This document shows positions 38,126 through 55,472 of a stretch of 64,000 nucleotides of DNA, piece after piece. How positions within the stretch are numbered: position 1 is the first letter of the stretch; each line of letters opens with the position of its first letter. The translations under genes were made by a program, and so were the position numbers. The notes beneath the pieces were generated by a model. The model made no database searches. It had not been told where the DNA came from and saw nothing but the letters and a program-made list of their open reading frames with translations. The stretch is taken from assembly GCA_021735655.1 (NCBI GenBank), contig JAIPGM010000003.1, positions 64,001-128,000 on the forward strand, read 5' to 3'. The stretch is from Candidatus Omnitrophota bacterium. GTDB lineage: Bacteria; Omnitrophota; Gorgyraeia; Duberdicusellales; 4484-171.

Positions 38126-38625
38126 AATGTCCGTTAAATAAAATCTGGCCTTTGTTTTACTATAAAGATTTAAAATCAGAAAATTTAATAAATTTAAGCC
38201 AGCATCTTAAAGTTTGCCCTAAGTGTCGGACTCACTATGAAGCTTTAAGTGATACCCTTTCAGGTATCTCTAAAACTCAGGTTGATTTATCAGAGCCAGA
38301 GCTTTCAAAAATGATTCAGTCGATAAGCGGTGAGCCGAACAGTTCTTTTGGTATTTTTGAACAGCTTAAGGTTAAAAGCAGTGAATTTGTTGAAAAACTA
38401 CACTGGGGGATATTTTATCAGCCGCAGTTTGCCTGGGTGATGGTTGCGGTTTTGTTGATAACTTTGTTTGTGCCGCTACAGAGGAAACAGGCTATTTTCC
38501 AAGAACAGCTATTTGATCTGCAGATGGATTTAGTTTCCGGCGAAGATGATTTCGAAACTTTTCTCGACCTCTATAGCCTAGAGGAGCAATCTCAAAATCC
38601 TTCTTCGACTATAATTGTTTCATAA
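38122..38625 (+). CDS. Putative anti-sigma factor (zinc-finger + single TM)
   Basis: It is translationally coupled to the sigma gene. It carries 'HLKVCPKCRTHYE' (Cys/His cluster) and the TM helix 'WVMVAVLLITLFV'. Confidence 0.45.
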   Translation: MKCPLNKIWPLFYYKDLKSENLINLSQHLKVCPKCRTHYEALSDTLSGISKTQVDLSEPELSKMIQSISGEPNSSFGIFEQLKVKSSEFVEKLHWGIFYQPQFAWVMVAVLLITLFVPLQRKQAIFQEQLFDLQMDLVSGEDDFETFLDLYSLEEQSQNPSSTIIVS

Positions 38626-40544
38626 GTGTTTTTAGGTAGTTCCTCTAGAAACATTGAAGGCTGAGTGATAATCGCTCCATTTTTGAAGGTATATTTTATT
38701 TGAGGGTAGGTTATGTGAAGCAGTGATTTTGTTCGGGTTGTGGCTACATAAAATAGTCTTCTTTCTTCCTCGAGAGATTTATTGCTTTCAATAGCTTTAG
38801 GGTGAGGAAACTCATATTCGCAGAAACCAATAATAAATACCGCTTCCCATTCAAGGCCTTTGGCTTGATGGATTGTTGAGAGAACCAGAGTTTCCTGTTT
38901 TTCGTAGTTATTGGTACGGGTTTCACCTTTAAAATTATCGAATGAGCTTAGATCAAGAAGGAAGCTTTTGATTGATTGATATTGTTGGGACATTTTGGTT
39001 AACTCTTCTAAGTCCATTATCCGTTCATCAGGATTGTCAAAGGAAAGATAGCAGTAGTCCTTATAGTATTTAAGAATTTCTTCTAAGGCTTCATTAGGCT
39101 TTTTTATTTTTTTCAGAGCCTCAAAGACCAGGGCGAAATTGTTAAAACCTTCGGCTTGGCGTTTAGGAAGGCTTTTTTTTATTTCTGAAAGGCTGGTTTT
39201 TCTATCGGTAAACTTATCCCATATTTTATAGGCGTAGCTTCGACCAATTCCTTTATGGAGACAGACAGCACGTTTAAAAGATAGTTCGTCCTGAGGGTTG
39301 AGAATTATTTTAAGATAAGAGAGGGTATCTTTTATGTGAGCTTGCTCAAAAAAACGCATCCCGCCTCGGATAAGGTAAGGGATGTTTCTTTTAATCAGTT
39401 CCATTTCAAGTTCTAGGGCTTGAAAGCGAGACCGAAACAGCACGGCTATCTCACCTAGCTGAATACCTTCGCGGTTTAGTTCAAGTATCCTTTGGCCGAT
39501 GAATTTAGCTTGCTGGTAAACATCTTTTGTTTCAACTACACAGGGCAGATCACCACCGGTTTTTATTGCTTCTAAATCTTTTGGAAATTGATCGATATTG
39601 TGTTTTATGATTTCGTTAGCTAAGTTTAATATCGGTGGTTGCGAGCGGTAGTTTATCTGAAGCTTGAAAATTTTTGTTTCTTTAAAGGTGTTTGGAAATT
39701 CAAGAATATTATTTATATCGGCGGCGCGAAATGAGTATATTGATTGAGCATCATCTCCGACCGCTAAGATATTATTATGATGGGAGCTTAGTTTTTTGAG
39801 TATCTCAAACTGTAATTTATTAGTATCTTGGTATTCGTCAACCAGGATATAGCGAAAGATTCTAGAATACTTTTCACAGATGTTAGGGTTAGTTAAAACT
39901 TCCAACCATCTGGTTAAAAGATCGCTGAAGTCCATAGCATTAGCGTTTTTCTTTTTCTTTCTGTAACTGGCAACTATTTTTTTTACGATTGGAATGTATT
40001 CTTCTAGGTGCGGATGAAATTCTTCGATAATTTCATCAACTCCTTTAAGTGAACTGGAAGCGAGACTGTAGATATTATAGATGACTCTTTTTTTGGGAAA
40101 CATTTTTTCTTTCTTGTAGAGACCTAAATCTTCAACGCAATCATCAATTAAATCTTGGGCATCTTCTCGGTCAACAATAGTAAAATTGGGCGAGTAACCT
40201 AGTGATTCGGCTTCTTTTCTTAAAGTTATATTACCGATATGGTGGAAGGTTCCGGCCCAAAGATCAGACAGGCTTGATTTGAGCAGAACTTCGGCTCGGT
40301 TAATCATTTCATTAGCTGCCCGGTTAGTAAAGGTAGCTAGGAGAATATTCCGGGTCGGGATTCCTTTTTCTAACAGATAGGCTAAACGATAAATCAGAAC
40401 TCTGGTTTTGCCGCTGCCGGCGCCGGCTAAAACTAAGGATGGCCCCTCAGCTTCAGAAACTACTTTTAATTGTTGGGGATTGAGGTTATCGGGATAGTCA
40501 ATTTGAGTTTGTGAGGAAAAAGGCTCTAACTTATACTTTTTCAT
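38592..40544 (-). CDS. uvrD: UvrD/PcrA/Rep family ATP-dependent DNA helicase
   Basis: 'LNPQQLKVVSEAEGPSLVLAGAGSGKTRVLIYRLAYLL' is helicase motif I. Motifs 'VDEYQDTN' and 'TIHQAKGLEW' follow. Confidence 0.85.
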   Translation of the reverse strand: MKKYKLEPFSSQTQIDYPDNLNPQQLKVVSEAEGPSLVLAGAGSGKTRVLIYRLAYLLEKGIPTRNILLATFTNRAANEMINRAEVLLKSSLSDLWAGTFHHIGNITLRKEAESLGYSPNFTIVDREDAQDLIDDCVEDLGLYKKEKMFPKKRVIYNIYSLASSSLKGVDEIIEEFHPHLEEYIPIVKKIVASYRKKKKNANAMDFSDLLTRWLEVLTNPNICEKYSRIFRYILVDEYQDTNKLQFEILKKLSSHHNNILAVGDDAQSIYSFRAADINNILEFPNTFKETKIFKLQINYRSQPPILNLANEIIKHNIDQFPKDLEAIKTGGDLPCVVETKDVYQQAKFIGQRILELNREGIQLGEIAVLFRSRFQALELEMELIKRNIPYLIRGGMRFFEQAHIKDTLSYLKIILNPQDELSFKRAVCLHKGIGRSYAYKIWDKFTDRKTSLSEIKKSLPKRQAEGFNNFALVFEALKKIKKPNEALEEILKYYKDYCYLSFDNPDERIMDLEELTKMSQQYQSIKSFLLDLSSFDNFKGETRTNNYEKQETLVLSTIHQAKGLEWEAVFIIGFCEYEFPHPKAIESNKSLEEERRLFYVATTRTKSLLHITYPQIKYTFKNGAIITQPSMFLEELPKNTYETIIVEEGF

Positions 40545-40626
40545 AGTTTTTTATCTTATCATAAAGTTTGGGTTTGTATATATTTTGTTGAGTAAGGATA
40601 GTGGCTGTGTTATAATGATATTTATT

Positions 40627-40733
40627 ATCCCGCCTCACTATATAGCAGGTAAATTCTCGGGGAGAATTTACCTGCACTCGGCGGGATTTAATTCGACTAG
40701 GCATTTTTGCACGCCTTATCTAGGCAAAAATGC
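40627..40733 (+). promoter_or_regulatory. Structured 5' leader: 61-nt nested perfect hairpin plus a second 10-bp-stem hairpin upstream of the ACT-domain gene
   Basis: Hairpin 1 is 'atcccgcc..gcaggtaaattctc-ggg-gagaatttacctgc..ggcgggat' at 40627-40687. Hairpin 2 is 'gcatttttgc-(13 nt)-gcaaaaatgc' at 40701-40733. A promoter-like TTGAGT-17-TATAAT at 40588-40616 would start transcription just 5' of hairpin 1. Confidence 0.4.
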
Positions 40734-40755
40734 AAGTCTCATTAAGGAGGTTATT

Positions 40756-41151
40756 ATGAAAGCTAAAAAAGCTACCGAATTACTGCTTATCGCCGACAAT
40801 AAGGTTGGAAAACTTGCTGAGATTTCTCAACAAGTAAAAGAGAACGGATTGAATATTCAGGCAATATCAGCCTGGGCTTTTGATGATAAGGCTTATTTTA
40901 GATTAGTTGCTTCTGATAGCTCCAAGGCCAGAGAAACTTTACAAGGTTTGGGTAAACTGGAGGAGAGGGAAGTTTTAATCGTTGATATGCCTGATGAAGT
41001 TGGTCAACTATTTCTACTTACTTCTAAGTTGAAAGATAGCAATATTGATATTCGTTACATTTACGGAACTGCTTCTCAGCCAGGAAGCTCAGCAATTGTT
41101 GTTCTTTCTTCAGACTCTAACGAAAAGGCTTTAGAAATTATTTCTGCCTAG
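40756..41151 (+). CDS. ACT-domain protein (small ligand-binding regulatory domain)
   Basis: The RBS 'aaggagg' lies 5 nt upstream of the ATG. The 131-aa protein reads 'LLIADNKVGKLAEISQQVKENGLNIQAISA'. The upstream in-frame extension in the ORF track lacks an RBS and overlaps the hairpins. Confidence 0.55.
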   Translation: MKAKKATELLLIADNKVGKLAEISQQVKENGLNIQAISAWAFDDKAYFRLVASDSSKARETLQGLGKLEEREVLIVDMPDEVGQLFLLTSKLKDSNIDIRYIYGTASQPGSSAIVVLSSDSNEKALEIISA

Positions 41152-42357
41152 ATGCAGGTTAAATTTCCTTCTAACTTTTTGTGGGGGGCTTCGCTCTCCA
41201 GCTATCAATCTGAAGGTGGAAACCTTAACACCGATTGGTATCTTTGGGAAAAAGAGCGAGGCCTTGAGGGTTGTCAGCTTACTTGTGACCACTATCATCT
41301 TTTCGATAAAGATTTTCAATTAGCCAGCCAGCTAAACCTTAACTCTTTAAGATTTTCAATAGAGTGGGCTAGAGTATGTCCCTATGAAGAGGTGTTTTCT
41401 CAAAAAGAAATCGAACATTATTCTAGCGTGTTCGATTCACTTCTTAAATATCAATTAAAACCAGTAGTGACTTTGCATCATTTTACTAATCCGGCTTGGT
41501 TTGCTGATCGCGGCGGGTGGTTAAAAAGTTCCAATATCGATTACTTTCTTAAGTTTTTGAGAAAAATAGTAGAGGTCAATAAGGATAAGGTAGATACTTG
41601 GCTTATTTTTAATGAACCTCTAGTCTATATCTATCAAGGATTTATAACTGGCTGTTGGCCTCCGGGGAGGCGTTCCTATAAAGATGCAAAAAAAGTTTTA
41701 GCCAATATTTTAGAGGCTTATTGTACTGGTTACGAAGAGATAAAACGAATATACGATAAAGATCCGGTTTCAGTATCTTTAGCCAAAAGTATGCGGGCTT
41801 TTTCTAGTTGCCCTGATAGCTTGCCATTGTTAAGTAAGTTCACAGTTTTTTTAAGAGACAGGCATTTTAATTGGCAAGTTCTTAATTATTTAGCTAAGCG
41901 GAAAAAATTAGACTTTATTGGTCTTAATTACTATTGTAAGGATTATGCTAAGGTTAAAGGAGTTTTTGGTGATGAGTGCAAGCACACTCATCATTCGGAA
42001 AGAAGAAACTATCTTGGTTGGTATATTTGGCCAGAAGGTTTATATAAAATTTTGCTTAGCCTTAAGAAGCTAGATTTGCCAATAGTTATTACTGAAAACG
42101 GGACTGCTGAAAGCCGGGATGAATTTTATCAATTGTATTTAGTCCAACACCTTGAGATGGTAGCGAAAGCTATAACTAAGGGAGTTAAGATAGAGGGTTA
42201 CTTTTGGTGGTCACTGTTAGATAATTTTGAGTGGGATAAAGGTTTTGGCCCGCGCTTTGGTTTATTTGAAGTTGACTACAAGAGTCTAGAGCGAATTCCT
42301 CGAGATGTTTCCAGTGTTTATGCTAAAATAGTTTCTGAGAATAAGATAGAAATTTAA
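41152..42357 (+). CDS. Glycoside hydrolase family 1 (beta-glucosidase/6-phospho-beta-glucosidase family)
   Basis: It has 'FLWGASLSSYQSEGG' and 'TLHHFTNPAWF'. 'IFNEP' is the acid/base site and 'ITENG' the nucleophile. Its ATG directly abuts the stop of the ACT gene. Confidence 0.85.
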   Translation: MQVKFPSNFLWGASLSSYQSEGGNLNTDWYLWEKERGLEGCQLTCDHYHLFDKDFQLASQLNLNSLRFSIEWARVCPYEEVFSQKEIEHYSSVFDSLLKYQLKPVVTLHHFTNPAWFADRGGWLKSSNIDYFLKFLRKIVEVNKDKVDTWLIFNEPLVYIYQGFITGCWPPGRRSYKDAKKVLANILEAYCTGYEEIKRIYDKDPVSVSLAKSMRAFSSCPDSLPLLSKFTVFLRDRHFNWQVLNYLAKRKKLDFIGLNYYCKDYAKVKGVFGDECKHTHHSERRNYLGWYIWPEGLYKILLSLKKLDLPIVITENGTAESRDEFYQLYLVQHLEMVAKAITKGVKIEGYFWWSLLDNFEWDKGFGPRFGLFEVDYKSLERIPRDVSSVYAKIVSENKIEI

Positions 42358-42360
42358 CTT

Positions 42361-44208
42361 ATGCAAAAAGAAGAAACAAAACTTATCATCAGTAATAACC
42401 CGCCGTTTAACAAGCTGGCTGAAGACGAGATCAATAAGCTTGTTGAGATATCTGAAATTAAAGAGTATAAAAATGGAGAAATAATATACAATCAGGGCGA
42501 TCAGCCGGATTTTTTATATTTGCTGCTTAAAGGCCGGGTTATGGTTTCGGTTCTAGCTGAAAACAAGGACTCAGAGATTGAGATTATTAAACGCGGTACC
42601 TGTTTTGGAATAATTTCTTTACTTACCGATGAGCCTCATTCGGTAACCACCAAATCAATCGAAACTTCATTTATTATCCAGATAACAAATGAAGATTTCA
42701 AAAAATTCCTAGATAATAATCCTTACTTAGCTTTAGATTTTTCACGGACACTTTCTCAGCGGGTGAAGGGCCGTTTTAAGCCAAAGAGAATATTTCAGTC
42801 AAAGAAGATAGGAATAATCGGTGTTTCGGCATCCGGCAAGACGACCTTTATGTTTAATCTCGCAAAAGAGATAAAAAACCAAACCAAAAAAGAGATTGTT
42901 TGCATTCAAATTATCCCTAGTGCTCAGGCCAGCTTCAGTGATAAAAAGAGAGGATTATTACTAAATAATTTTTCAGAAACTACTCTTTATGATTATATTA
43001 AGAAAGGCTCGATTGACAGCCTTTGTGTAATTGCCGATAGCAGTAGAGATTTTGCTTCGATTATAAATTTCCTTTCTGAGAGCTATCATTTTATTTTGTA
43101 TGAAATTCCTTATAGTTTTTCAGAACTAGACAGAGAGAGCCTTATTGAGCCGGCTCAAAATTTACATTATCTAATTTTTCCCAAAAAAGGTGCTTTGAAG
43201 GAAAGTTCCAATGCCATCAAAAATTTAATTAAACAAAATCCAGTCAACCGAGAGAAAATCAAAGTAATTTTAGCCGAATTTCCGGTAGACGATCAACTAT
43301 CTTTTGTTCAAAAAAATAGTTTATTAGAGCATCCGATTGAAGCAGTTCTTTCTAGTCAGGATTCTTTAAGTTATCAGGCAACCTTGCGTAGGTTAGCTCG
43401 TCAAATCGGCGAAGTTACAATTGGTGTAGCCTTAGGTAGCGGAGCCGCTTACGGCTATGCACATATCGGAGTTTTAAAGACTTTAGCTGAGGCTAAGATT
43501 CCAATTGATATCATTTGTGGCTCAAGTATGGGGGCGGTAATCGCTGCTCTTTGGGCTACCGGGTTTTCTATTTCTGATATCGAAAATTATTCTACTGAAG
43601 TTGGCAAGGGGATTGGTTCTTTTTCTTTGTTCGGTCTTTCAATTCCCTTCCAAGGGATTATGAAGGCTAAGCGCCTAGAAAGTATCTTTAAGAAGATATT
43701 TGGTAATTTGACATTTTATGATTTAAAGCAAAGCATTAAAGTGGTTACTTTTGACTTTAAAAGACGAGAAACAGTAGTTTTAGAAGAAGGTTTAATTTAT
43801 GAAGCTTTAGCCGCAAGTTGTGCTTTTCCGGGAATATTCGAACCAGTATGTCTCAAAAAAGATATTTTTTTAGACGGAGGTATTTTAAATCCTCTTCCGA
43901 CAAAAATATTACTTCAATACGGTGCTCATAAGATCATTGCTTCCAATATTACTCTTTCTCAGGAACAAGCCCTTTCCGAATATGCCAAGCGAGATAAATT
44001 CCATATTTTTGATTTTATTTTTGGTAGTATTGAAACTATGCAACAACACTTTGTTAGGCAAGCTATAGAGTTAGCTGATGTAACTATCCATAGCAATCTA
44101 GAGGGGTTGGGTTGGACTGAGTTTAACAAAATAGATGAGTTTATCGCCCGGGGGCAGGCAGCAGCTCAAGATAAGTTAACGGAAATTAAAAAATTAACTA
44201 GTTTATGA
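42361..44208 (+). CDS. Three-domain protein: cyclic-nucleotide-binding domain + P-loop (Walker A) middle domain + patatin-like phospholipase
   Basis: A cNMP-binding-like N-terminus carries 'RGTCFGIISLL'. The middle domain has 'IGIIGVSASGKTTFMFNLA' (G-x4-GKT) and 'LCVIADSS'. The patatin domain has 'GVALGSGAAYGYAHIGVL', the GxSxG site 'CGSSMGAVIAA' and 'FLDGGILNPLP' (catalytic D-G-G). Confidence 0.7.
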   Translation: MQKEETKLIISNNPPFNKLAEDEINKLVEISEIKEYKNGEIIYNQGDQPDFLYLLLKGRVMVSVLAENKDSEIEIIKRGTCFGIISLLTDEPHSVTTKSIETSFIIQITNEDFKKFLDNNPYLALDFSRTLSQRVKGRFKPKRIFQSKKIGIIGVSASGKTTFMFNLAKEIKNQTKKEIVCIQIIPSAQASFSDKKRGLLLNNFSETTLYDYIKKGSIDSLCVIADSSRDFASIINFLSESYHFILYEIPYSFSELDRESLIEPAQNLHYLIFPKKGALKESSNAIKNLIKQNPVNREKIKVILAEFPVDDQLSFVQKNSLLEHPIEAVLSSQDSLSYQATLRRLARQIGEVTIGVALGSGAAYGYAHIGVLKTLAEAKIPIDIICGSSMGAVIAALWATGFSISDIENYSTEVGKGIGSFSLFGLSIPFQGIMKAKRLESIFKKIFGNLTFYDLKQSIKVVTFDFKRRETVVLEEGLIYEALAASCAFPGIFEPVCLKKDIFLDGGILNPLPTKILLQYGAHKIIASNITLSQEQALSEYAKRDKFHIFDFIFGSIETMQQHFVRQAIELADVTIHSNLEGLGWTEFNKIDEFIARGQAAAQDKLTEIKKLTSL

Positions 44209-44912
44209 GGAAATTGGTAATATTTTTATTATTAGTGGTGAGTTTTCAGTTTTTAAGCTATGGTCAAAGTATTAAGGAACGCTTTAAGGGGCAGGATAAG
44301 CTAATTTATGAGGTTTACTACAATGGGATGTTTTCCGGTCATATCTATTGGAGCTATAAAGGGACTGAAAAGGTTGAAGGCGGGCTGGCTGATGTGATCC
44401 ACGTAAGTTCTGATACTAAGATTTTAGGCTTACTGGATTTAACCAGCGATGAAGATGTTTTCCTTGATTCGGAAAATCACCTTCCGCTTAAAGTAAAGCG
44501 AAATATAGTTATGTTTGGCAAGAAAGAGCTGATTGATGAGATTTACGATCAGGGAAAAGGTTTTGTGCGGTTAATTATAAGAGGCGATGAAGCCAGAGAG
44601 GAAATTATTTCTCAGGATAAGCCAATTCATAATATTTTGGCCTTGCTTTATTTTTTCCCGCAAAATGTTAAGTTAGAAAAAGATCGATGGATGAACTTCA
44701 ATCTTCCTACCCAAAAGATAAAGATAAAATTTATCAAAGAGCGACCTCTAAAAACAGATACTGGAGAAGTTGATACTTATTTTTTAATTGGTAGGGGGGC
44801 CAAGCGCTTTAGTCTCTGGATGGATAAAGTTACCCGCATGCCTCTGCGTCTTGAGTTTGTTTCTCTTCTAGGAAAGGTTAGCATTGTGAGAGCCGAAGAA
44901 AACCAGCCTTAA
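44205..44912 (+). CDS. Secreted hypothetical protein (DUF3108-like), translationally coupled to the patatin gene
   Basis: It has a 4-nt ATGA overlap with the upstream stop. The signal peptide reads 'MRKLVIFLLLVVSFQFLSYGQ', followed by a beta-rich remainder. Confidence 0.4.
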   Translation: MRKLVIFLLLVVSFQFLSYGQSIKERFKGQDKLIYEVYYNGMFSGHIYWSYKGTEKVEGGLADVIHVSSDTKILGLLDLTSDEDVFLDSENHLPLKVKRNIVMFGKKELIDEIYDQGKGFVRLIIRGDEAREEIISQDKPIHNILALLYFFPQNVKLEKDRWMNFNLPTQKIKIKFIKERPLKTDTGEVDTYFLIGRGAKRFSLWMDKVTRMPLRLEFVSLLGKVSIVRAEENQP

Positions 44913-54800: not shown

Positions 54801-54923
54801 ATGAAAGATAGAAGAGAAGGGCCCAAAGAAAGAAGAAGAGAGGGCAAACCAAAGAAGTCGCGGAAGAAAGATAAACGGCTGACTAAGAAAGATCGAAGAA
54901 AGTTTAACATTCTTCACGTATAA
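54801..54923 (+). CDS. Candidate 40-aa highly basic small ORF between ilvB and ilvN (may be non-coding purine-rich spacer)
   Basis: It translates to 'MKDRREGPKERRREGKPKKSRKKDKRLTKKDRRKFNILHV'. It starts 4 nt after the ilvB stop. 'ggagg' lies 12 nt upstream, a suboptimal spacing. Confidence 0.2.
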   Translation: MKDRREGPKERRREGKPKKSRKKDKRLTKKDRRKFNILHV

Positions 54924-54937
54924 CTATTTATTAGGTA

Positions 54938-55414
54938 ATGATAAAACATACAATTCAAGCACTAGTTGAAAATAAGTTTGGCGTATTGGCTAGGGTTGCT
55001 TCTTTATTTAGCGCTCGCGGTTACAATATCAGTTCTTTGGCTGTCGGTGAAACTCAGGATCCAACAATTTCTTGCATGACGATTGTGGTTAGCGCTGAAG
55101 ATGAAAGAATACTAGAGCAGATTAAAAAGCAGCTCCATAAACTTATTGATGTTATCACGGTTATTGATTTTACGCGTCGTGACCATATCGATCGAGAACT
55201 GCTTTTGGCCAAGGTTGTTAAAACCAAGGAATCAAAAGCCACGATTGATAAATTAATTAAGGCTTACGATTTAAAACTTACCGAAGAAACTGGCGGTTAC
55301 TGCATTATTGAAGTTTCTGCTGAGCATCATAAAATAAAAGAAGTCCTCCAAAGTCTAAAAAAGTTTGAGCTTAAAGAATTGGTAAGGACAGGTAGGATAG
55401 CAATTAGCAAATAA
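54938..55414 (+). CDS. ilvN: Acetolactate synthase small (regulatory) subunit
   Basis: The ACT domain reads 'HTIQALVENKFGVLARVASLFSARGYNISSLAVGETQDP'. Confidence 0.85.
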   Translation: MIKHTIQALVENKFGVLARVASLFSARGYNISSLAVGETQDPTISCMTIVVSAEDERILEQIKKQLHKLIDVITVIDFTRRDHIDRELLLAKVVKTKESKATIDKLIKAYDLKLTEETGGYCIIEVSAEHHKIKEVLQSLKKFELKELVRTGRIAISK

Positions 55415-55472
55415 TTCGCCTCAACAACTTATGTTCCATAAGTCGGGGGCTCACTAAACAAGGAGGAAAGTT

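Follow-up and report, generated by a model that had tools for sequence, protein, structure and literature searches.

The spacer upstream of the ACT-GH1 gene pair carries the local copy of a modular, structured 5′ leader that, judged from sequence comparison, is lineage-restricted and belongs to an ACT-GH1-(cNMP-patatin)-DUF3108 operon of Omnitrophota. The aligned leaders establish that the structure is under selection for pairing and that the leader is an optional element, with a conserved promoter on its 5′ side and a strong, exposed Shine-Dalgarno (SD) sequence on its 3′ side. We infer that the leader acts at the RNA level and affects mRNA stability or translation. Our tentatively favoured reading is that it may serve as a constitutive, cis-acting and optional structural leader that tunes mRNA stability or translation initiation in the manner of the ompA 5′ UTR. 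All positions refer to the window, i.e., the whole stretch of 64,000 nt that was analysed.

Structure of the window leader and its operon

The leader consists of two adjoining hairpins, P1 and P2, preceded by a promoter-like site and followed by the SD and the first gene of the operon. The features are listed below.

38592-40544, minus strand: UvrD helicase, divergent (Pfam)
40588-40616, plus strand: sigma-70-like promoter, TTGAGT-17-TATAAT with a TG extension (10/12 matches)
40627-40687, plus strand: P1, with an outer 8-bp stem, an asymmetric internal loop and an inner 14-bp hairpin (sequence and fold)
40627-40634 (AUCCCGCC) with 40680-40687 (GGCGGGAU), plus strand: P1 outer stem, 8 bp, C-rich/G-rich
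40635-44 and 40676-79, plus strand: P1 asymmetric internal loop
40645-40658 (GCAGGTAAATTCTC) with 40662-40675 (GAGAATTTACCTGC), plus strand: P1 inner stem, 14/14 bp, GGG loop
40688-40745, plus strand: P2, with a base helix, a UC/UC loop, a 4-bp helix and a 10-bp upper stem (folds)
40688-92 (UUAAU) with 40741-45 (AUUAA), plus strand: P2 base helix
40693-94 (UC) and 40739-40 (UC), plus strand: P2 2x2 internal loop
40695-98 (GACU) with 40735-38 (AGUC), plus strand: P2 4-bp helix
40701-40710 (GCATTTTTGC) with 40724-40733 (GCAAAAATGC), plus strand: P2 upper stem, 10 bp
40711-23, plus strand: P2 apical loop, 13 nt
40746-50, plus strand: Shine-Dalgarno sequence GGAGG, directly 3′ of P2
40756-58, plus strand: ACT start codon ATG
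40756-41151, plus strand: ACT-domain-pair protein, 131 aa, first gene of the operon (Pfam ACT and ACT_8)
41152-42357, plus strand: GH1 family glycosidase (Pfam Glyco_hydro_1, E = 4e-77)
42361-44208: cNMP-binding patatin (Pfam)
44205-44912: DUF3108 (Pfam)

The two hairpins that the preliminary description had reported, a nested one of 61 nt and one with a 10-bp stem, are both present and are statistically exceptional. The RNA fold of 40615-40760 had an energy of -51.4 kcal/mol, compared with -30.0 ± 3.7 kcal/mol for dinucleotide shuffles (z = -5.8), and none of the 200 shuffles was as stable. The search for inverted repeats reported 20 pairs in the 64-kb window, of which the inner stem of P1 alone was perfect over 14 nt or more, and a repeat search found no recurrence of its arms within the window. 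A tRNA/tmRNA scan returned nothing. The 10-bp stem of the second hairpin was correctly placed at 40701-40733, but the extent of this hairpin had been underestimated, as the helix spans 40688-40745. Below the upper stem, the structure continues through the GACU/AGUC and UUAAU/AUUAA helices, and P2 therefore closes 1 base before the SD. Across the leaders compared, P1 is separated from P2 by 0-2 nt.

The TTGAGT-17-TATAAT site, proposed earlier as the promoter, was the best promoter-like match of the region in our promoter scan, and it was kept in the related loci L034, L002 and L040, whether or not they had the leader. From its position, we infer a transcription start at approximately 40622-40625. 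The distance from the -10 element to the start of P1 is 10 nt in the window (10-11 nt in the window and L034). The transcribed leader is thus probably ~130 nt long; the previously given length of 170 nt counts the promoter as well. In L013 and L051, the promoter-like site was located ~58 nt upstream of P1, and the scan of the L006 leader found no such site, so P1 is not always 5′-terminal. In consequence, the trait common to all instances is the position of P2, adjoining the SD.

The accessibility of the SD was assessed with partition-function folds of whole leaders together with 30 nt of coding sequence. The window SD had a mean predicted unpaired probability of 0.65. The values were 0.42-0.74 for motif-bearing and 0.34-0.76 for motif-less leaders; the SD is equally accessible with and without the motif, which argues against an OFF-state helix. 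No alternative helix sequestering the SD was found in the predicted ensembles.

The arrangement of the genes was as first described: the ACT stop codon TAG (41149-41151) abuts the GH1 ATG at 41152, and uvrD is divergent upstream. The database entry of the window ACT protein is a hypothetical protein from a Candidatus Omnitrophica MAG, and 2f06, the solved structure closest to it, is a protein without an assigned function. The protein has 253 homologues at E ≤ 1e-20; among the 120 homologues listed, most carried no source name, and every name given was Omnitrophica or Omnitrophota. In tblastn searches of the window proteins against the fetched homologous loci, ACT and GH1 were adjacent in ~17 loci, or in about two dozen when gene tables were also counted. 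After the pair, cNMP-patatin and DUF3108 usually come next, and UvrD is often found upstream in divergent orientation; another clade has the gene order GH57-DUF2934-ACT-GH1. The combination of ACT and glycosidase genes, which had been considered unusual, is therefore a conserved Omnitrophota operon.

Homologous leaders, covariation and leaderless relatives

In the conservation check that the preliminary description had proposed, the hairpins proved to be conserved ahead of related ACT-GH1 operons: covarying, homologous leaders were found in seven other Omnitrophota loci (L034, L006, L013, L051, L003, L036 and L007). The two-hairpin leader was present in L034, L006 and L013, whose ACT proteins are 86%, 55% and 59-60% identical to that of the window, respectively, and in L051, with an ACT protein 82% identical to that of L013. 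L003 (65% identical to the window) had the two hairpins and an additional 5′ hairpin, P0, whereas L036 (66-67%) had P0 and P1 only. In L007, the leader was located one gene upstream, before DUF2934; thus L006 and L007, with ACT proteins 88% identical to each other, carry the motif in different adjacent spacers. A covariance model built from the window leader alone recovered L006 (80 bits) and L013 (31 bits).

The shared architecture comprises a C-rich/G-rich P1, a linker of 0-2 nt, the element UUAAU-UC...helix...UC-AUUAA and the SD. Strand asymmetry is kept, both in the UC/UC loop and in P1, where the 5′ arm is C-rich and the 3′ arm G-rich. The invariant nucleotides are confined to the P2 base helix and the UC/UC loop, and the conserved P2 half-elements are 15 to about 50 nt apart. 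The interiors and loops of P1 vary in length and sequence; P1 is smallest in L007, where 5 bp enclose an 11-nt loop, and largest in the window, with 8 + 14 bp. Conservation of the P1 loops does not extend to all instances. L034 and L006, however, have an identical 9-nt P1 apical loop, CUCUACGAU, on entirely different stems.

The 4-bp helix above the UC/UC loop illustrates how the stems change. It is formed by GACU/AGUC in the window and L013, GCAC/GUGC in L006, GUCC/GGAC in L003, UCCG/CGGA in L051, UCCU/AGGA in L034 and CAAU/AUUG in L007. The P1 outer stem also covaries across seven loci. MAFFT alignments of whole leaders mis-registered the covarying stems, and the following values come from alignments of only 8-10 sequences, made by hand with the structure in mind and with loop interiors given as N. 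For the P1 base together with the P2 core, 95.1% of the cells were paired, with a covariation of 0.381 against 0.116 in shuffled alignments (reached in 0/500) and at most 0.073 in slid ones. Ten P2 cores gave 96.6% paired cells and a covariation of 0.598 (shuffled 0.138, 0/500; slid ≤0.089). In the P1 inner stem of the window, L006 and L034, all 32 of 32 cells were paired (100%), 6 of the 11 pairs had changed on both sides, and the covariation was 0.727 (shuffled 0.262, 1/500; slid ≤0.061). G.U pairs were very rare, with a few in L036, L051 and the second module described below.

Between the window and L034, with ACT proteins 86% identical, the stem sequences are completely different and yet the pairing is kept, which argues that selection acts on the structure and not on the sequence. 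Together, the preserved pairing and the covariation above the controls point to a conserved, strand-specific structure, which is most likely that of an RNA.

Other arrangements were considered across these instances and rejected. A leader peptide that stops at the UAA within UUAAUUC was discarded because its frame has no start codon. Sequestration of the SD by the C-rich P1 arm, or anti-SD pairing of that arm, was not conserved across the instances, and nor were kissing interactions between loops. It is also unlikely that the hairpins are part of the uvrD transcript: a conserved TTATCTTATCATAAA block, which reads as a -10-like TATGATAAGAT on the minus strand, adjoins the start of uvrD, and loci without uvrD can have the motif as well.

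Several close relatives have no leader, i.e., L002 and L040 (ACT 82% identical), L010 and L011 (79%) and L042 (76%). These loci keep the promoter and the whole operon, and the -10 element runs directly into the RBS; L002 and L040, for instance, read TATAAT-CTAGGAA-AAGGAGG. In a neighbour-joining tree of GH1, the carriers (window and L034) were interleaved with the non-carriers L040 and L002, from which it follows that the leader was lost or gained repeatedly and is dispensable. A comparison of the filled (window, L034) with the empty (L002, L040) junctions revealed neither target-site duplications nor terminal repeats. The spacers of L040 and L011 contain other perfect palindromes elsewhere.

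A second P2-like module and the copy number of the family

A structure-aware pattern scan located a second P2-like module in the window, in the 58-nt spacer between ilvH and ilvC (flanking genes identified by Pfam).

55412-55458 (55412-55466 with the SD), plus strand: P2-like module in the ilvH-ilvC spacer
55418-22 (GCCUC) with 55446-50 (GGGGC), plus strand: helix, preceded by UAAU-UC
55427-43, plus strand: apical hairpin ACUUAUG-UUC-CAUAAGU
55461-66, plus strand: SD AGGAGG, following the 3′ end of the module, UC-ACUAAA

The UAA within UAAU is the ilvH stop codon. The window contained two SD-adjacent matches to the pattern, compared with a mean of 0.025 in 200 dinucleotide shuffles, none of which reached two. 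The 3′ half of the ilvC module is nearly identical to that of P2 in the L003 ACT leader, and the module as a whole is closer to this P2 than to the ACT P2 of the window; the two modules of the window have only the core in common. The minimum free energy prediction for the single sequence prefers another fold, and hence the assignment of the ilvC module rests on homology.

Inverted P2-like modules were detected by the P2 model on the minus strand in P0 of L003 and in the inner part of the L007 helix. In L003, two inverted modules flank P1. Covariance models R1, R2 and R3 revealed no convincing further copies over about 293 kb, and neither a covariance model nor a regular expression found any elsewhere in about 230 kb of other loci. 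With no further copies beyond chance in these scans, the leader family appears to be a low-copy one. The core pattern gave 117 matches in the 116 fetched stretches of viral contigs; we rejected them, as only 3 had the required adjacent 4-bp helix, approximately the number predicted by chance. A blastn search of phage and plasmid collections with the leader gave no match.

Possible roles of the leader

The 5′ UTR of E. coli ompA is an mRNA stabiliser with one hairpin (hp1) at the 5′ end and another (hp2) adjoining the RBS. The Omnitrophota leader is similar in its length of ~130 nt, in having a hairpin near the presumed 5′ end and a second one upstream of an exposed RBS, and in having neither a terminator nor a ligand. 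As in ompA, structure stands beside an accessible RBS, since P2 stops 1 base short of GGAGG, an SD with a predicted unpaired state. The two leaders have no sequence relationship, however; the 5′-terminal position, deduced for the window, does not hold in L013, L051 and L006, and ompA has no counterpart of the invariant UC/UC loop and base helix. If the Omnitrophota leader is such a stabiliser, transcription from TTGAGT-17-TATAAT would place the GC-clamped P1 a few nucleotides from the 5′ end, where it would limit 5′-end-dependent decay. P2 would insulate and present the RBS, its invariant base closing against the unpaired, strong SD. Acting together and with no ligand sensing, P1 and P2 would increase or adjust the output of the operon, as the ompA 5′ UTR does, and the relatives would have lost an optional leader. 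The recurrence of the module 5′ of the strong ilvC SD fits a generic role adjoining the RBS. Some observations are less easily reconciled with a stabiliser. The transcription start is deduced from the promoter, P1 is not 5′-terminal in L013 and L051, and L006 has no promoter-like site. A generic element needs neither an invariant UC/UC loop nor the CUCUACGAU loop common to L034 and L006, which hint at specific recognition by some factor. The rarity of G.U pairs is also compatible with palindrome maintenance at the DNA level, inverted copies of the module exist, and the covariation alignments were made by hand from 8-10 sequences.

The preliminary description had proposed that a ligand-responsive riboswitch or transcription attenuator controls the ACT-GH1 pair. 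The leader does share a covarying, conserved structure in the 5′ UTR with riboswitches and other Rfam leaders, the first gene of the operon encodes a small-molecule-binding domain, and a weak terminator-like site was called in the window (40671-40685, 5 bp, tail ATTTAATTCG). In the homologues, however, P1 is followed by UUAAUUC, GUAAUUC or UUAAGUUC, which are not U-tracts; the terminator scan gave no call in L013 and L051, and the scans of the window and its homologues found no conserved intrinsic terminator after P1 and no antiterminator alternative. Rfam had no match at the gathering threshold in the whole window or the seven homologous loci, and in permissive E-value mode nothing fell below E = 0.1 in the two module regions, where the best hits (E ≥ 0.13) were at chance level and lay outside or across the hairpins. 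The leader alignment contains no multi-helix junction pocket with invariant unpaired nucleotides, and no aptamer-like bulge core; the size of P1 varies widely, and no expression platform was recognised, the SD being free in the predicted ensembles. Moreover, the closest relatives have the same operon without the leader, and a P2-like module is also found at ilvC. On present evidence, the leader adds no riboswitch class, and control by a ligand or by attenuation is very unlikely. In RAT/BglG antitermination, a RAT hairpin overlaps a terminator and a CAT-PRD antiterminator acts together with PTS genes in β-glucoside (GH1) operons. The Omnitrophota leader is likewise rich in hairpins and precedes an operon with a GH1 enzyme, but it has no hairpin overlapped by a terminator, and the cluster in the window codes for ACT, GH1, cNMP-patatin and DUF3108 only (Pfam), with no CAT-PRD or PTS gene. 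The inner stem of the window is loosely RAT-like, a feature not conserved in the relatives. An operator for a DNA-binding repressor, with no role for RNA, had been named as the alternative. We considered such an operator, or a cruciform, in the promoter region between the divergent uvrD and ACT genes, with a dimeric repressor as the protein that binds it. Perfect palindromic arms just downstream of a promoter are what such an operator would present, but this explanation fails because the arms vary even at 86% ACT identity, where the pairing is conserved, because the spacing of the half-elements ranges from 15 to about 50 nt, and because the motif occurs in L006, L007 and the ilvH-ilvC spacer, away from uvrD or any divergent promoter. 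The UC/UC asymmetry, kept in most modules, also means that the element is no true palindrome, and we consider a DNA operator extremely improbable.

The invariant UC/UC core and the P1 loop common to L034 and L006 keep alive a model in which the leader is a translational operator for a trans-acting RNA-binding protein, possibly the ACT protein as a metabolite sensor. Such a regulator would bind the P2 base and the UC/UC loop, perhaps also the P1 loop, and compete with the 30S subunit, as the threonyl-tRNA synthetase (ThrRS) does. The strand-specific element UUAAU-UC...UC-AUUAA adjoins the SD, whereas all parts above it are free to vary, CUCUACGAU is retained on fully covaried stems, and the same core precedes ilvC, directly after ilvH, which is itself an ACT-domain gene. 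The E. coli thrS translational operator, a repressor platform competing with the ribosome, also has two hairpins with a short linker directly upstream of the SD. In contrast to thrS, the Omnitrophota loops show no anticodon mimicry, and the leader is dispensable in close relatives. We found no candidate RNA-binding protein, the closest structure to the ACT protein (2f06) has no assigned function, we know of no ACT domain that binds RNA, several close relatives keep the ACT protein without the leader, and the P1 loops vary among the instances. A translational operator is therefore, in our estimate, rather unlikely. Unlikelier still is the more specific proposal that the P2 core would be recognised by a post-transcriptional regulator of Omnitrophota not described before, which might be the ACT-pair protein encoded alongside and which would co-regulate the ACT-GH1-patatin operon and ilvC. 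An equally small chance attaches to the modules being REP/REPIN- or MITE-like palindromic DNA, selfish or neutral: small hairpin-forming repeats that would enter intergenic DNA by insertion or recombination and have incidental effects on the flanking genes at most. REP, BIME and REPIN elements are intergenic palindromes of proteobacteria, e.g., the malE-malF REPs, and can stabilise mRNA. Like them, the Omnitrophota element is an imperfect palindrome with conserved flanks and internal mismatches that is found in direct as well as inverted orientation (inverted in P0 of L003 and the inner part of the L007 module), sometimes as inverted pairs, and in an intercistronic position (ilvH-ilvC). The patchiness at one site among close relatives that interleave in the tree, the inverted copies with their REPIN-like arrangement around P1 of L003, the similarity across loci between the ilvC module and L003 P2, and the almost exclusively Watson-Crick pairing keep this model alive; the different spacers used in L006 and L007 and the other palindromes in the L040 and L011 spacers also agree with it. 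Nevertheless, the window holds only two copies in 64 kb, with little in common beyond the core, and the scans of about 230 kb of other loci found none elsewhere. The boundaries between filled and empty sites show no target-site duplication or terminal repeats, and viral, phage and plasmid sequences gave no matches beyond chance. Unlike REPs, which lie 3′ of genes, the element is found 5′ of the SD and, in distant genomes with ACT proteins only 55-65% identical, consistently stands at the start of one operon.

The stabiliser reading thus remains the one that we favour, and with it the leader would belong to an already known kind of element, the structured 5′-UTR hairpin. As a family it is previously undescribed: Rfam has no match, and our search of the literature on Omnitrophota RNA motifs found nothing relevant. 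To our knowledge, essentially nothing is known about post-transcriptional control in Omnitrophota. If our interpretation is true, the leaders represent an uncatalogued family of structured mRNA leaders, absent from Rfam, in an uncultivated phylum. The motif is compact and supported by covariation, with an invariant core that abuts the SD, and the natural pairs of close relatives with and without it would be useful for studying how leader hairpins tune expression. It also provides a marker for a conserved, uncharacterised operon encoding the ACT pair, GH1, cNMP-patatin and DUF3108. Should the P2 core prove to be the site of a regulator, such as the ACT protein, the two would form a new regulator-operator pair, found in a phylum without experimental genetics.

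A P2-like module between the ilv genes

A second hairpin module resembling P2, the helix adjacent to the Shine-Dalgarno (SD) sequence in the leader of the ACT-GH1 operon, was located in the ilvH-ilvC spacer:

55412-55466: P2-like hairpin module, ilvH-ilvC spacer

Its conserved UAAUUC begins with UAA, the stop codon of ilvH, and its 3' half is closely matched by P2 of the ACT leader in L003, a homologous locus carrying an extra 5' hairpin. The 140-nt ilvB-ilvH spacer contains a 40-codon ORF (54801-54923, plus strand) with no obvious SD upstream; the predicted product is an extremely basic peptide, MKDRREGPKERRREGKPKKSRKKDKRLTKKDRRKFNILHV.

The uvrD side of the spacer and the minus-strand ORF

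The start codon of uvrD is directly adjoined by a conserved block, TTATCTTATCATAAA (40556-40572), which is present at the equivalent position in most loci and reads on the minus strand as the -10-like TATGATAAGATAA. The lack of a visible SD before the ATG makes a very short leader, or none at all, possible for uvrD. One gene call overlaps the ACT leader on the same strand as uvrD:

40531-40704, minus strand: 57-aa ORF, called as a gene in a Logan assembly (locus L001, 4776-4949)

This ORF consists of promoter and hairpin sequence, and it is probably spurious, judging from the absence of its sequence in relatives that lack the leader.

Other structures and repeats upstream of ACT or DUF2934

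Further palindromes, hairpins and repeats were observed in the homologous loci:

L040, 1401-1435: long perfect palindrome, e.g. GGGGACGGTTCTATTTAATTAAATAGAACCGTCTC
L011, about 1560-1600: long perfect palindrome
L006, 4500-4610; L016, about 900-1010; L052, 1040-1130: long short-repeat hairpins
L047-L050, some 400 nt 5' of ACT: T-rich and AACCTT repeats

The palindromes belong to leader-less relatives and lie in the uvrD-ACT spacer, upstream of the ACT promoter. The hairpins of the L006 clade precede the DUF2934 gene and are made of CACGAAT-like or CAGATGA-like short repeats. In L047-L050, the uvrD-ACT spacer is enlarged by tandem repeats rich in T (GGTTTTTTAGTCTTTT...) and by repeats of AACCTT, whose copy number varies between assemblies. 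A structured leader of another type abuts the ACT SD in L046 (1-57); the portion seen, cut upstream by the contig end, comprises two GUAA-tetraloop hairpins inside an outer stem, GGGCAAG/CTTGCCC.

Degenerate forms of the two-hairpin leader may be present in two segments, namely L015 about 300-385 (UCCCG...CGGGA-UUAUAA-CUUGCG...CGCAAG) and L017 60-124 (UUAUG-AGCGCUUCGAUC-CAUAA...UCAUUAAAGGAGG). The covariance models picked up neither segment.

The operon cluster in Omnitrophota

The gene cluster itself is kept in many Omnitrophota MAGs:

38592-44912 and loci L002-L054: UvrD (minus strand) / ACT pair - GH1 - cNMP-binding patatin - DUF3108

In one clade, the gene order is GH57 - DUF2934 - ACT - GH1.
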